Source: a virus
Taxonomy: Duplodnaviria > Heunggongvirae > Uroviricota > Caudoviricetes
IMG/VR virus record: IMGVR_UViG_2534681773_000022
Strand: one strand, 5' to 3'
Length of the DNA: 50,514 nt
The notes below the pieces were generated by a model that was not told the DNA's origin, made no database searches, and saw only the letters and a program-made list of their open reading frames with translations. This document shows positions 16,286-17,909 of the stretch, in pieces; position 1 is the first letter of the stretch, and every line of letters begins with the position of its first letter. Made by a program: the position numbers and the translations under genes.

Positions 16286-16289
16286 TGTT

Positions 16290-16318
16290 GTTGATTTTTC
16301 CCGAATCTGTGGTAAATT
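16290..16318 (+). promoter_or_regulatory. PR'-like late promoter (-35 GTTGAT/TTGATT, extended -10 TGgTAAATT)
   Basis: Directly downstream of Q; the -10 TAAATT with upstream TG matches the lambda PR' -10 as I recall it; followed by tR' 50 bp downstream. Confidence 0.5.
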
Positions 16319-16367
16319 TGCTCTAACGATGGGCGTTTTATGCCTGACGTTAGAAGATTTTTTACAC

Positions 16368-16390
16368 CCCGCCGCCTGGCGGGTTTTTTA
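16368..16390 (+). terminator. tR'-like intrinsic terminator (CCCGCC-gcct-GGCGGG + TTTTTT)
   Basis: Perfect 6-bp GC stem followed by six T; about 55 nt downstream of the late promoter -10. Confidence 0.7.
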
Positions 16391-16511
16391 TGACTGAAAT
16401 CGCGTCAGTATAGTAAACGCGCTGGTGGCGGTGAATACCTGTCTTTCAGCTTGCTGGCTTTTTCGACAAGAGTTATTGGTGTGTCACGTTAACCGGAAAA
16501 GGGAAAAAGAC

Positions 16512-16709
16512 ATGCTAAAACAGCAGGATATGACAGAAACCGCCAGAGTGGTGTTTAATGAATTAAGCGTTACCGAACCGGCGACAGTCGGGGAGATAGC
16601 GCAGAATACTTACCTTTCACGCGAACGCTGCCAGTTAATACTGACCCAGCTGGTTATGGCGGATCTGGCAGACTATCAGTTCGGTTGTTACAGACGCCTT
16701 CCGCAGTGA
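16512..16709 (+). CDS. Hypothetical small protein
   Basis: 65-aa ORF between tR' and the methyltransferase gene. Confidence 0.35.
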   Translation: MLKQQDMTETARVVFNELSVTEPATVGEIAQNTYLSRERCQLILTQLVMADLADYQFGCYRRLPQ

Positions 16710-16737
16710 AGGCTTTTTTATTTGTGGTAAATGGGCG

Positions 16738-16766
16738 GCTGGTGGGTGTTAGGGGCACCCACCAGC
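16738..16766 (+). other. Stable RNA/DNA hairpin (11-bp stem GCTGGTGGGTG / CACCCACCAGC, 7-nt loop) without a T-tract
   Basis: Perfect inverted repeat upstream of the methyltransferase gene, preceded by a second TGTGGTAAAT motif at 16722-16731. Confidence 0.5.
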
Positions 16767-16859
16767 CATCTGCTCATGCGTTGGGTTCACAAGCAAACCT
16801 CAGGCCCACTGCTTTGCGCAAAAGCAGAATGAGCCTATCAGAGACAGGCTTAATGATCC

Positions 16860-17909
16860 ATGCTTAATACTGTAAAAATATCCAGTTGTGAGTTAATCAA
16901 CGCCGACTGCCTGGAATTTATCCGGTCGTTACCCGAAAATTCTGTTGACCTGATAGTCACGGACCCGCCGTACTTTAAAGTGAAGCCTGAGGGCTGGGAT
17001 AACCAGTGGAAGGGCGACGATGATTACCTGAAGTGGCTGGACCAGTGTCTGGCGCAGTTCTGGCGGGTGCTGAAACCTGCCGGAAGTCTTTACCTGTTCT
17101 GTGGTCATCGCCTGGCATCTGATATCGAAATCATGATGCGTGAACGCTTCAGTGTGCTGAACCATATTATCTGGGCGAAGCCGTCCGGACGCTGGAACGG
17201 ATGCAACAAGGAAAGCCTGCGGGCGTATTTCCCCGCCACAGAGCGCATTCTGTTCGCGGAACATTATCAGGGGCCGTATCGTCCGAAAGATGCCGGGTAT
17301 GCGGCGAAGGGCAGTGCACTGAAACAGCATGTGATGGCCCCGCTGATTTCTTACTTTCGTGATGCGCGCGCGGCCCTGGGGATAACGGCAAAACAGATTG
17401 CAGATGCCACAGGAAAGAAAAACATGGTGTCGCACTGGTTCAGTGCCAGTCAGTGGCAGCTACCGAACGAAAGCGATTATCTGAAATTACAGTCGCTGTT
17501 TGCCCGGGTGGCAGAAGAGAAACATCAGCGCGGTGAACTGGAAAAGCCCCACCACCAGCTGGTGGATACGTATACGTCACTGAACCGGCAGTATGTGGAG
17601 CTGCAGAGTGAATATAAGCATCTGCGGCGGTATTTTGGTGTGACGGCGCAGGTGCCGTACACGGATGTGTGGACACATAAACCGGTGCAGTTCTATCCCG
17701 GGAAACATCCGTGCGAAAAACCGGCAGAAATGCTGCAGCAGATAATCAGCGCAAGCAGTCGTCCGGGTGACCTGGTTGCAGATTTTTTTATGGGCTCAGG
17801 TTCAACGGTAAAAGCGGCACTGGCGCTCGGGCGTCGTGCGATTGGCGTTGAGCTGGAGACCGGACGTTTTGAGCAGACAGTCAGGGAAGTTCAGGATTTA
17901 ATCGTTTGA
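16860..17909 (+). CDS. Phage DNA N6-adenine (or N4-cytosine) methyltransferase, DPPY-motif class
   Basis: 349-aa ORF with motif IV TDPPYF near the N-terminus and a C-terminal FxGxG-like AdoMet motif (DFFMGSGST). Confidence 0.8.
   Translation: MLNTVKISSCELINADCLEFIRSLPENSVDLIVTDPPYFKVKPEGWDNQWKGDDDYLKWLDQCLAQFWRVLKPAGSLYLFCGHRLASDIEIMMRERFSVLNHIIWAKPSGRWNGCNKESLRAYFPATERILFAEHYQGPYRPKDAGYAAKGSALKQHVMAPLISYFRDARAALGITAKQIADATGKKNMVSHWFSASQWQLPNESDYLKLQSLFARVAEEKHQRGELEKPHHQLVDTYTSLNRQYVELQSEYKHLRRYFGVTAQVPYTDVWTHKPVQFYPGKHPCEKPAEMLQQIISASSRPGDLVADFFMGSGSTVKAALALGRRAIGVELETGRFEQTVREVQDLIV

Follow-up and report, generated by a model that had tools for sequence, protein, structure and literature searches.

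The interval analysed here lies between the antiterminator gene Q and an adenine methyltransferase gene in a Caudoviricetes sequence of 50,514 nt (IMG/VR record IMGVR_UViG_2534681773_000022), and this whole stretch of DNA is referred to below as the window. The following features were placed in and around the interval:

15464-16285, plus strand, antiterminator Q, 273 aa, lambda-Q family, with an insertion of ~66 aa carrying extra CxxC repeats
16291-16333, plus strand, late promoter PR' with a qut-like region, by alignment to lambda PR' (-35 TTGATT at 16291-16296, 16-nt spacer, extended -10 TGgTAAATT at 16310-16318)
16368-16389, plus strand, intrinsic terminator tR', by terminator scan (CCCGCC-GCCT-GGCGGG at 16368-16383, then T6)
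16512-16709, plus strand, small conserved ORF, 65 aa (PHROG phrog_331, E = 1e-36)
16696-16722, plus strand, second intrinsic terminator t2, by terminator scan (GCCTTC-CGCAGT-GAAGGC at 16696-16713, then TTTTTTATTT, T6)
16722-16862, plus strand, structured leader RNA of the methyltransferase, ~140 nt, the whole element up to the ATG (covariance model R1)
16860-17909, plus strand, non-specific adenine DNA methyltransferase of the M.EcoGII family, 349 aa (Pfam N6_N4_Mtase, E = 2e-44)

Q matches Pfam PF03589 (E = 1e-49), the family into which lambda Q also falls, and aligns with lambda Q over its full length (BLASTP, E = 6e-39, 31% identity). The gene ends at 16285 and the -35 element of PR' begins at 16291. 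Both the -10 with its flanks (GGTAAATTTG) and the initial transcribed region with its pause element (AACGATGGG) are identical to those of lambda PR', the distance from AACGATGGG to the -10 is equal to lambda's, and the -35 differs from that of lambda in one base (TTGAtT vs TTGACT). The spacer between -35 and -10, where lambda Q binds, has another sequence here (TTTCCCGAATCTGTGG vs TATTGAATAAAATTGGG in lambda), which is expected because this Q is divergent from lambda Q, and no Q-binding site is assigned within it. The PR' region also holds the -10-like pause element AACGAT (16325-16330), followed by GGG, and by analogy transcription is predicted to start at A16325 and to pause at AACGAT. A 10-nt motif, TGTGGTAAAT, has its first copy inside PR' (16308-16317), and this copy is, judged by its sequence, part of a lambda-type late promoter. 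The PR'-like element and tR' that a sequence-only reading of the window had proposed directly after Q are supported, both by the lambda-identical GGTAAATTTG and AACGATGGG and by the homology of Q to lambda Q.

In such an arrangement, a constitutive PR' with a -10-like pause element would allow Q to load onto RNA polymerase; without Q the PR' transcript would end at tR' after ~65 nt, and with Q the polymerase would pass tR' and also the second terminator after the small ORF. The region is similar to that of lambda (PR', qut, 6S RNA, and tR') in its site directly after Q, its -10 TAAATT and flanks, its pause element, the intrinsic terminator that follows and a Q of the same protein family, but differs in the ~66-aa insertion of Q, in the spacer and in the second terminator behind a small ORF. 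Lambda 6S RNA and StxS of Stx phages are constitutive short PR' transcripts (PMC7547250), and by likeness to these a constitutive short transcript is expected in the window (PMC7547250), of ~65 nt when terminated, whereas lambda 6S has 194 nt and StxS has 258 nt before and 74 nt after processing. StxS was also considered as a known small RNA equivalent to the methyltransferase leader and was rejected, given that it is the PR'-tR' transcript and that Sakai Sp5 has neither methyltransferase nor leader. In relatives with other Q genes, homology to the window starts exactly at the tR' hairpin (query position 169/170).

Relatives of the 65-aa ORF were found by tblastn in 24 genomes from at least 10 genera by record title (51-100% identity), and its product carries a weak TrmB-like winged-helix signal (Pfam TrmB, below threshold, E = 0.02). 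Its stop codon (16707-16709) lies inside the hairpin of t2, and a comparable hairpin with its U-run is found at this position in most relatives. The sequence-only reading made no mention of t2.

The remaining ~140 nt up to the methyltransferase ATG form a single element, which is the only real match of covariance model R1 in the window (123.6 bits, E = 2e-34). Its parts are:

16723-16736, plus strand, 5' tail UGUGGUAAAU (the second copy of the motif) and AUGGGC, by family consensus
16737-16767, plus strand, helix P2 (the hairpin noted earlier), 12 bp with loop UUAGGGG, an inverted repeat
16769-16797, plus strand, helix P3, UCUGCUCAUG / CACAAGCAAA, by covariation
16803-16835, plus strand, GGCCCAC, hairpin P4 (16810-16826) and AUGAGCC, by covariation
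16848-16858, plus strand, GCUUAAUGAUC, start codon positions -12 to -2, pairing with P5 or with the helix C partner

The 5' tail follows the consensus UGUG-(R)-A(2-4)-U-GGGCGG, in which the number of A residues is variable, and AUGGGC (16731-16736) is the 5' strand common to helix A and P1 (AUGGGCG is invariant except for one compensated change, in locus L026). P2 is built of the arms GGCTGGTGGGTG and CACCCACCAGCC (16737-16748 and 16756-16767), i.e., 12 perfect pairs around a 7-nt loop. The perfect stem described in the sequence-only reading is therefore real, but it spans 12 bp at 16737-16767 and not 11 bp at 16738-16766; as described, no T-tract comes after it, AUCUGC being the sequence that follows. 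P2 is not an intrinsic terminator: in place of a U-tract its tail is AUCUGCUC here and AUUCGCUC in relatives, and the terminator scan gave no call for it. Several strands have two possible partners: the P3 5' strand includes GCUCAU (16772-16777), the 3' strand of the alternative helix A; GGCCCAC is the P1 3' strand and the helix D 5' strand; AUGAGCC is the P5 5' strand and the helix D 3' strand; and GCUUAAUGAUC can pair with 16829-16834 (P5) or, at long range, with GUUCACAAGC at 16785-16794 (helix C). The GAUC in the start region is invariant. The first 45 nt of this conserved leader RNA comprise the second motif copy and the hairpin.

We could align 101 distinct homologues from enterobacterial genomes and viral contigs over 140 nt. 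The P2 hairpin clearly exceeds chance, as it is kept in more than 100 distinct homologues with changes on both sides (compensatory) in 8 of its 12 pairs, and subgroups exist whose P2 stems are entirely different, e.g., GGCGUACAUGAUG/CAUCGUGCACGCC and GACUGUAAAGGUG/CACCCUUACAGUC. Across P1-P5, 88% of cells are paired (at most 42% with slid partners), double changes are seen in 19 of 39 pairs, and the covariation score is 0.193 (at most 0.091 with slid partners); none of 500 shuffles reached the observed values, a statistic that overstates independence, as the sequences are related and have partly been exchanged horizontally. Individual pairs illustrate the pattern, e.g., in P3 (alignment A3) pair 55-81 is CG in 44, UA in 14, AU in 11 and UG in 3 sequences and pair 58-78 is UA in 56 and CG in 21, with newly found subgroups adding further P3 compensations; pair 102-112 of P4 is UA in 77 and GC in 3; pair 89-127 of helix D is GC in 66, AU in 7 and GU in 3; and pairs 77-145, 78-144, and 79-143 of helix C show AU/GC/GU exchanges. 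P1 is 100% paired, with one double change only. Many G.U pairs are valid on the plus strand only. Run on 80 non-redundant loci, the covariance model gave one match per locus (86-162 bits) and passed over chance matches to the search pattern. The leader is a conserved RNA structure on the plus strand, kept by compensatory changes.

Within 16250-16950, no family of Rfam 15 matched at gathering thresholds, all SAM and SAH riboswitch classes included (the best sub-threshold match, due to the hairpin alone, was to P26 on the minus strand at 24 bits, where 36 are required), and a text search of ~8 million papers for the core sequences of the leader returned no match. Other identities were considered and discarded: protein coding through the leader, as its indels have lengths that are not divisible by three; coupling of the methyltransferase start to a small ORF upstream, as no start codon lies between the in-frame stops; a tRNA-like structure, as ARAGORN reports just the two downstream tRNAs; the small RNAs AgvB and AsxR, both of which lie after moron genes in the STnc100 zone (18386-19043); and Pas, as the Pas sRNA paper does not mention a methylase.

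About 30% of complete E. coli genomes carry the leader, with 2513 places counted in this species; it is also present in 59 phage records and in at least nine further named genera of enterobacteria. When the RNA alone served as BLAST query, the leader overlapped a methyltransferase annotation in most of the listed phage records and in 11 of the 11 full-length E. coli matches listed. All 101 aligned loci, which were collected with patterns that include the start region, have the end of the leader at the ATG of an M.EcoGII-type gene. Where the methyltransferase has been deleted (PhiR5_1) or another gene has taken its place (phiSTEC1575-Stx2k), the leader is missing its 3' part. A functional mosaic boundary within the PhiR5_1 hairpin was considered and dropped, as there is only a microhomology deletion that removed the methyltransferase and the tRNAs. 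A viral scan with the methyltransferase protein recovered near-identical E. coli loci only and added no diversity. The element is widespread in lambda-like prophages and was previously unannotated.

The methyltransferase shares 331 of 350 aligned positions (95% identity) with M.EcoGII (sequence from the supplement of PMC11551740), which is also 349 aa long, and has the motif order of the beta class (DPPYF at residues 35-39, FMGSGS near the C-terminus). M.EcoGII is non-specific and is described as unexpressed in the lysogen and deleterious when constitutively expressed (PMC5778455); the same paper names phage 1720a-02 as the carrier of a close homologue, and its passages that were searched describe no leader RNA or control mechanism for M.EcoGII or M.EcoGI. 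Phage 1720a-02 carries the leader at 97% identity, and the module is also present in E. coli DA33133 and in phages phiP27, SfV, and mEp460. M.EcoGIX was followed as a further lead and abandoned, as this enzyme is plasmid-borne. The methyltransferase ATG has no Shine-Dalgarno sequence: the match in the window is weak (-3.3 kcal/mol), duplexes with the anti-SD average -2.7 kcal/mol, and not one of the 80 sequences attains -6.

By computation, the leader has two mutually exclusive folds, both supported by covariation, and this support consists partly of one-sided G.U-to-G.C changes and, for P1, of a single double change. In the stable fold, P2 is extended by helix A (AUGGGC with GCUCAU) and positions -12 to -2 are held in helix C; in the other predicted fold, P1, P2, and P3 meet in a three-way junction accompanied by hairpin P5, and the start region is free. 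Helices A, C, and D are 93-96% paired, with double changes in C and D, and the fold that contains them is the predicted minimum-energy structure of 56 of the 101 sequences, the mean energy difference between the folds being 4.5 kcal/mol. The leader may also be a nested double-pseudoknot that combines parts of both. The start region is predicted to be mostly paired (mean unpaired probability 0.35). Loss of the 5' AUGGGC, by processing or by an internal start, was examined in silico as a way to open it and was rejected, with an unpaired probability of 0.35 for full and truncated forms alike; since the start region stays closed without AUGGGC, a simple model in which processing activates translation is unsupported by thermodynamics. 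In an L157-like subgroup the helix C extension is almost nil and, thus, the switch may not be universal.

We consider it probable, on balance, that the interval is composed of two unrelated parts, i.e., a lambda-type late control region and a leader RNA that serves as a post-transcriptional safety lock. The leader probably keeps the methyltransferase gene shut, its function being probably translational gating or processing, and we infer that translation is the step it controls. Pairing of -12 to -2 in helix C would block the access of ribosomes to the SD-less start codon; leaky read-through transcripts of a harmful enzyme would thereby remain untranslated in lysogens, and expression of the methyltransferase would be permitted in lytic growth. 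A protein, a small ligand, cleavage by RNase III in the extended hairpin or folding during transcription by the Q-modified polymerase are candidates for the trigger. The sequence-only reading had suggested an RNA structure that sets methyltransferase expression, and this was on the right track, in that its hairpin is P2 of a covarying leader that ends at the methyltransferase ATG and whose 3' part disappears together with that gene.

Such a lock would matter for several reasons. M.EcoGII-type enzymes methylate every adenine, are harmful and are silent in lysogens, yet in about one in three complete E. coli genomes a prophage has such a gene directly behind a constitutive promoter, many Shiga-toxin phages included. 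A conserved, covarying leader whose two folds compete at the start codon is a concrete and easily tested candidate for their control, and it lies upstream of tRNA and toxin genes on the same transcript. More tentatively, and with a chance that we would put clearly below even, the leader may be a new class of regulatory RNA switch that gates a toxic methyltransferase for lytic-only expression and has a shorter ancestral form in lambda, P22, HK97, and HK022. This switch could be controlled by a ligand, a protein or processing, possibly as a riboswitch built on the P1-P2-P3 junction. Should that be true, an anti-restriction methyltransferase would be made in lytic growth only, and a trigger that proved to be a metabolite or a phage factor would make the leader a new class of regulatory RNA within the best-studied phage family.

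The shorter homologues in question lie at 45017-45129 in lambda, 38077-38189 in P22, 36085-36194 in HK97 and 37098-37210 in HK022, each the one match of the covariance model in its genome (24.7-27.2 bits, E ~1e-5). They share with the window a homologous 5' tail (GUGAAA), helix A, P2, and P3 and a place downstream of tR' and ahead of the first late gene; unlike the longer element of the window, they are without P1, P4, P5 and the start-codon pairing, continue from P2 into GUUUUG and precede a holin gene, by ~55 nt, instead of a methyltransferase. In lambda and P22, this is an overlooked structured element of the late leader, a region that has been studied for decades without an annotation there.

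These homologues bear on the view that the extended hairpin (helix A and P2) serves mainly for processing of the late transcript by RNase III, where cleavage would set mRNA stability or separate the methyltransferase/tRNA segment from the upstream RNA. The lambda late leader, in which a homologue of this hairpin lies, reportedly contains RNase III sites (by the title of Daniels et al. 1988, cited in PMC7547250). The syntenic 5' tail, helix A, P2, and P3 before the holin genes of lambda, HK022, HK97, and P22 would agree with a processing site, as would the folding of the lambda region into the same extended hairpin (z-score -5.5), in which helix A remains paired despite three changes in its 5' strand. 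With 6 bp from helix A and 12-13 bp from P2, the extended helix has ~18-19 bp and a 4-nt bulge in its 3' strand, an arrangement kept in the lambda-type phages, but 18 bp with an internal loop is the lower limit for the enzyme, and processing leaves unexplained both the covariation of P3, helix C, and helix D and the conserved apical sequence of P2. We regard processing as the main function as possible though rather unlikely, and it overlaps with the safety-lock explanation, which includes RNase III among its candidate triggers.

A riboswitch, with P1-P2-P3 as the aptamer for SAM, SAH or a signal of lytic growth and helices A, C, and D as an expression platform that hides the start codon without ligand, appears improbable to us. 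The architecture is like that of translational ON-switches, with a junction whose joining nucleotides are invariant, each 3' strand of the junction has an alternative partner ending at the start region, the two covariation-supported folds are close in energy, and SAM is used by the enzyme whose gene would be regulated. The leader resembles the add adenine riboswitch (three-way junction) and the hok mRNA family (conserved alternative folds) as a structured 5' leader with exclusive pairing schemes and, as in translational RNA switches generally, one of its schemes occludes the translation start and a junction is followed by an expression platform. It differs from add and hok in having no sequence or model similarity to any Rfam family and no Shine-Dalgarno to hide, the occluded part being -12 to -2. 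The lack of likeness to any Rfam riboswitch, SAM/SAH classes included, counts against an aptamer, as do the nearly absent covariation of P1 and the absence of P1 and the 3' half from the lambda-type homologues; the gene context points to no ligand, and the conserved apical loop of P2 equally suggests a protein or tertiary contact.

The repeated motif from which the sequence-only reading started is better explained by chance. TGTGGTAAAT does occur exactly twice in the 50.5-kb window, with the second copy at 16723-16732 and not at 16722-16731 as given there. An exact direct repeat of at least 10 nt arises within 16286-16860 in 12.9% of 2000 dinucleotide-preserving shuffles, and the duplication is a chance repeat. 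The position of the second copy reads TGTGAAAAT, TGTGGAAAT, TGTGAAAT or TGTGGAAT in relatives, and the 10-mer itself is confined to E. coli and E. albertii variants. A -35 was looked for at the second copy and none was found, its position being occupied by the t2 stem and U-tract; the pause element AACGAT is absent there, with GGGCGG directly next. The sole register that offers TG and an A at -11 gives TAAATG, in which the T at -7 is missing, and more than half of the family variants lose the A at -11 or the TG spacing. The proposal of a duplicated promoter or Q-utilisation site is not supported, given the missing -35 and AACGAT, the chance level of the repeat and its lack of conservation.

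As a working extended -10 promoter, the second copy would start transcription independently of Q at ~16737-16740 and drive the methyltransferase and tRNA genes, with the hairpin as the protective 5' stem-loop of that transcript. The tail is TGtGAAAAT in ~45% of the family, a good extended -10 (A at -11, T at -7) followed by a GC-rich discriminator that would place the start of P2 at +1, and it is kept even where the upstream context is wholly different; the window itself has the hexamer TAAATG with no T at -7, the TGTGGAAAT, TGTGAAAT, and TGTGGAAT variants lose the A at -11 or the TG spacing, spacer length varies, and there is no -35 because the site lies on a terminator U-tract. Moreover, a transcript from this start would exclude AUGGGC, a strand that is base-paired in each of the two supported folds and whose change in L026 is compensated, and M.EcoGII is silent in lysogens, all of which leaves us doubtful that such a promoter operates.

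We think it very improbable that the inverted repeats are DNA-level signals and not RNA structure, i.e., a recombination hotspot or an operator to which the methyltransferase, through its helix-turn-helix-like insert, or the product of the small ORF would bind. Mosaic or deletion joints at the tR' hairpin and within P2, the weak match of the methyltransferase to HTH_3 (E = 0.03) and the weak winged-helix signal of the 65-aa protein would fit, but the stems are replaced completely in sequence with pairing retained, the many G.U pairs, bulges and long-range pairs 60-70 nt apart are a signature of RNA and not of protein-binding palindromes, and the PhiR5_1 joint is a plain microhomology deletion. 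A duplicated qut site at the second copy, where Q would load onto the polymerase again, has almost nothing to recommend it. The two sites share 10-13 nt (ATyTGTGGTAAAT) and the GGGCG after it and nothing else; the second copy has neither a -35 nor, ahead of GGGCG, an AACGAT after the -10-like sequence; the repeat does not exceed chance (P ~0.13) and is missing in relatives that have the same leader behind other Q types, and Q loading requires sigma bound to the promoter in an initiating complex.

A shorter form of the motif, GGTAAATT, had also been reported upstream of the XRE operon, and it is indeed found 77 nt before the XRE ORF, at 12400-12407 and not at 12399-12407; on both strands of the window it occurs three times, where ~1.5 occurrences are expected.

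The hairpin between Q and the methyltransferase gene is part of a structured leader RNA, undescribed so far, widespread and well supported, that ends at the methyltransferase ATG. The window represents an E. coli prophage of the lambdoid (Qin-like) type, with 16200-16900 being 100% identical to E. coli DA33133; past the methyltransferase come two tRNA genes, then sRNA genes of the STnc100 type, then an esterase and lysis genes.

15464-16285, Q
16368-16389, tR', strong intrinsic terminator (CCCGCC-GCCT-GGCGGG then T6; terminator scan)
16512-16709, small ORF (65 aa)
16696-16722, second intrinsic terminator (terminator scan)
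16722-16862, + strand, leader RNA
16860-17909, DNA methyltransferase (349 aa)

The sequence-only reading had placed a PR'-like element and tR' directly after Q, and this promoter and terminator part is ordinary and correct: the first motif copy is a genuine late promoter, with -10 and pause-element segments identical to lambda and a strong terminator behind it. In the alignment, the -35 is TTGATT (TTGACT in lambda PR'), and both GGTAAATTTG, spanning the -10, and AACGATGGG, at the site of the pause element whose role in sigma-dependent pausing is established in lambda, are identical in the two. Q is a lambda-Q family member that shares Pfam PF03589 with lambda Q and aligns to it along its entire length (BLASTP E = 6e-39); an internal insertion of ~66 aa carries extra CxxC...CxxC zinc-knuckle repeats, and Pfam gives two Antiterm stretches. 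By analogy, PR' transcripts would start near A16325 and, without Q, end after ~65 nt, the same pattern as lambda 6S RNA and StxS (PMC7547250). Further into the late leader, the small-ORF stop codon (16707-16709) lies inside the hairpin of the second terminator, so that translation of this ORF could interfere with termination. The ORF is conserved (phrog_331, weak TrmB-like winged helix) and always located between tR' and the leader; its product might be a partner of the leader RNA or of the methyltransferase.

The motif TGTGGTAAAT does occur exactly twice in the window (16308-16317 and 16723-16732), and GGTAAATT is found upstream of the XRE ORF (12400-12407); the features noticed earlier are present, with coordinates shifted by one and a stem that has one more pair than described. 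An exact direct repeat of at least 10 nt appears within 16286-16860 in 12.9% of 2000 dinucleotide-preserving shuffles, so the duplication alone is evidence of nothing, and it is a coincidence. Relatives carry TGTGAAAAT, TGTGGAAAT, TGTGAAAT, TGTGGAAT or other forms at the second-copy position, with a variable A count, and as only ~45% of the variants resemble a good extended -10 while the remainder do not, an internal promoter here is a minor rival and not the main reading. The proposal of a duplicated Q-utilisation site fails, as does a promoter in the window copy: it falls on the second terminator's U-tract, has neither a -35 nor an AACGAT element, reads TAAATG as its hexamer (in the one register that offers both TG and an A at -11) and has divergent relatives.

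The hairpin itself, P2 of the leader, is an inverted repeat, GGCTGGTGGGTG/CACCCACCAGCC (16737-16748 and 16756-16767), of 12 perfect pairs around a 7-nt loop, with no U-tract after 16767, as had been pointed out. Starting from relatives of the small ORF fetched from other species, we found that the noncoding stretch between this ORF and the methyltransferase is conserved more than the ORF itself (Kluyvera, Salmonella, Klebsiella, Citrobacter, Buttiauxella, Mixta, Providencia, Mangrovibacter). Two pattern scans of viral contigs yielded many further leader sequences, including subgroups whose P2 has a wholly different sequence and the same pairing. Pair conservation was scored in two alignments: A2, with 101 distinct sequences, and A3, a model-based one with 80 non-redundant sequences. 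In the nested structure P1-P5, 88% of cells are paired, compared with at most 42% after sliding of the 3' partners; both sides have changed in 19/39 pairs, and the covariation score is 0.193 (at most 0.091 for slid partners, 0.088 for shuffles); none of 500 shuffles reached the observed values. Double changes affect 8 of the 12 P2 pairs, P3 is well supported (one pair occurs as CG/UA/AU/UG, another as UA/CG, with more compensations in new subgroups) and P1 has one compensated change only. Frequent G.U pairs are compatible with the + strand only, and a coding sequence is excluded since length changes are not multiples of three. The covariance model from A2 recovers the leader at 123.6 bits (E = 2e-34), with no second real match in the window, and passes over chance matches to the search patterns; Rfam holds no family for it, and a full-text literature search with leader core sequences gave no match. 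At the P2 apex, including the loop (16749-16755), the sequence is conserved (UG-Y-U ... R-C-A), in contrast to the covarying lower stem, and the loops are anticodon-loop-like, YU-NNN-R(R) (e.g. CUGAUAA, CUGGUAA, UUGGUAG), pointing to a protein or tertiary contact.

Both RNAalifold and folding of the window copy by itself favour a second arrangement over P1-P5, whose three helices cannot coexist with P1, P3 and P5.

16731-16736 with 16772-16777, helix A (AUGGGC with GCUCAU), lengthens P2
16803-16809 with 16829-16835, helix D (GGCCCAC with AUGAGCC), encloses hairpin P4
16785-16794 with 16848-16858, helix C (GUUCACAAGC with GCUUAAUGAUC), covers -12 to -2 of the start codon

These helices are 93-96% paired, with double changes in three pairs of helix C and in helix D (GC 66-81, AU 7-12), and their number of doubly changed cells was reached by 0/500 shuffles. 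As the P3 covariation is unexplained by the second fold, selection appears to act on both pairing schemes. The minimum-energy prediction is the second fold for 56/101 sequences and the first for 12/101, with a mean energy difference of 4.5 kcal/mol; a subgroup resembling locus L157 is without most of helix C. The predicted short PR' transcript, which starts AACGAUGGGCG, has AUGGGCG in common with the helix A/P1 5' strand (16325-16335 vs 16731-16737) and in principle could compete in trans for its partners, but this likeness is confined to phages with this Q type and is probably coincidental.

Of 5426 complete genomes, 1651 contain the E. coli-type leader, at 2513 places in all, and it also occurs in 59 phage records, including SfV, cdtI, phiP27, mEp460, phiNP, 1720a-02, many Stx2 phages, and Klebsiella, Morganella and Providencia phages. 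Among the matches listed, it overlaps a methyltransferase annotation in most rows, and where the methyltransferase is missing the leader is cut. In phiSTEC1575-Stx2k an unrelated gene takes its place and homology ends in the P3 loop. PhiR5_1 has a microhomology deletion from the P2 5' arm to a point downstream of the tRNAs, keeping just that arm, which accounts for what looked like a mosaic boundary within P2; loss of the methyltransferase and tRNA genes took place between the short repeats GGTGGGTG and GGCGGGTG (locus L002, 2866-2885 vs window 16741-16748 and ~18262-18272).

The methyltransferase is 95% identical to M.EcoGII (sequence in the PMC11551740 supplement) over the same length of 349 aa. 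M.EcoGII is described in PMC5778455 as a prophage-encoded, non-specific adenine methyltransferase, silent in normal growth and deleterious when expressed constitutively. The window gene has no usable Shine-Dalgarno sequence at its start codon: the anti-SD duplex energy averages -2.7 kcal/mol over 80 leaders, none of which reaches -6, versus -5.3 to -8.2 for three neighbouring genes, and folding predicts that most of the start region is paired. Given that PR' is constitutive and the terminators leaky, an enzyme methylating every adenine would need a further lock, and we postulate that the leader provides it post-transcriptionally. The more stable, default fold would form locally as the RNA emerges and bury the bases that immediately precede a start site weak in itself; the alternative junction fold would expose this site. 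We infer that translation is the controlled step of this leader, whose anatomy, conservation, covariation and linkage are observed, and the RNA merits experimental follow-up. The earlier suggestion of an RNA-processing structure setting methyltransferase expression goes in the right direction, the hairpin being part of a covarying methyltransferase leader; the simplest processing model is disfavoured, since in silico removal of the 5' strand leaves the start region closed.

In 171 kb, the covariance model found exactly one syntenic match in each of four classic lambdoid phages (24.7-27.2 bits, E ~1e-5), unannotated in those records and located between tR' and the holin gene, ~55 nt 5' of the latter.

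45017-45129, lambda (locus L286)
37098-37210, HK022 (locus L285)
36085-36194, HK97 (locus L284)
38077-38189, P22 (locus L283)

They share the 5' tail, helix A, a 10-bp P2 and P3 with the window leader but lack P1, P4, P5 and the start-codon link. In lambda, helix A is still paired despite three substitutions in one strand, and the region has a folding z-score of -5.5. A 1988 paper cited in PMC7547250 reportedly describes where RNase III processes the late transcript of lambda, and the classic-phage element may coincide with the sites reported for the late leader.

Downstream of the methyltransferase, the two intact tRNAs (17959-18034 and 18044-18120) are followed by a truncated third (18131-18180, an argO-like 5' half), where Stx phages such as Sakai Sp5 have three; a DUF3927 ORF is annotated just 3' of it in the identical genome. 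The moron zone 3' of the tRNAs contains two tandem STnc100-family sRNA genes (18386-18579, 141 bits; 18855-19043, 133 bits) that each have a terminator of their own. Rfam matches elsewhere in the window are hok/sok (11914-12089; 117 bits for the sok model, accompanied by a hokD ORF), DicF (4537-4588, minus strand; 77 bits) and IS009 (49225-49422; 218 bits).
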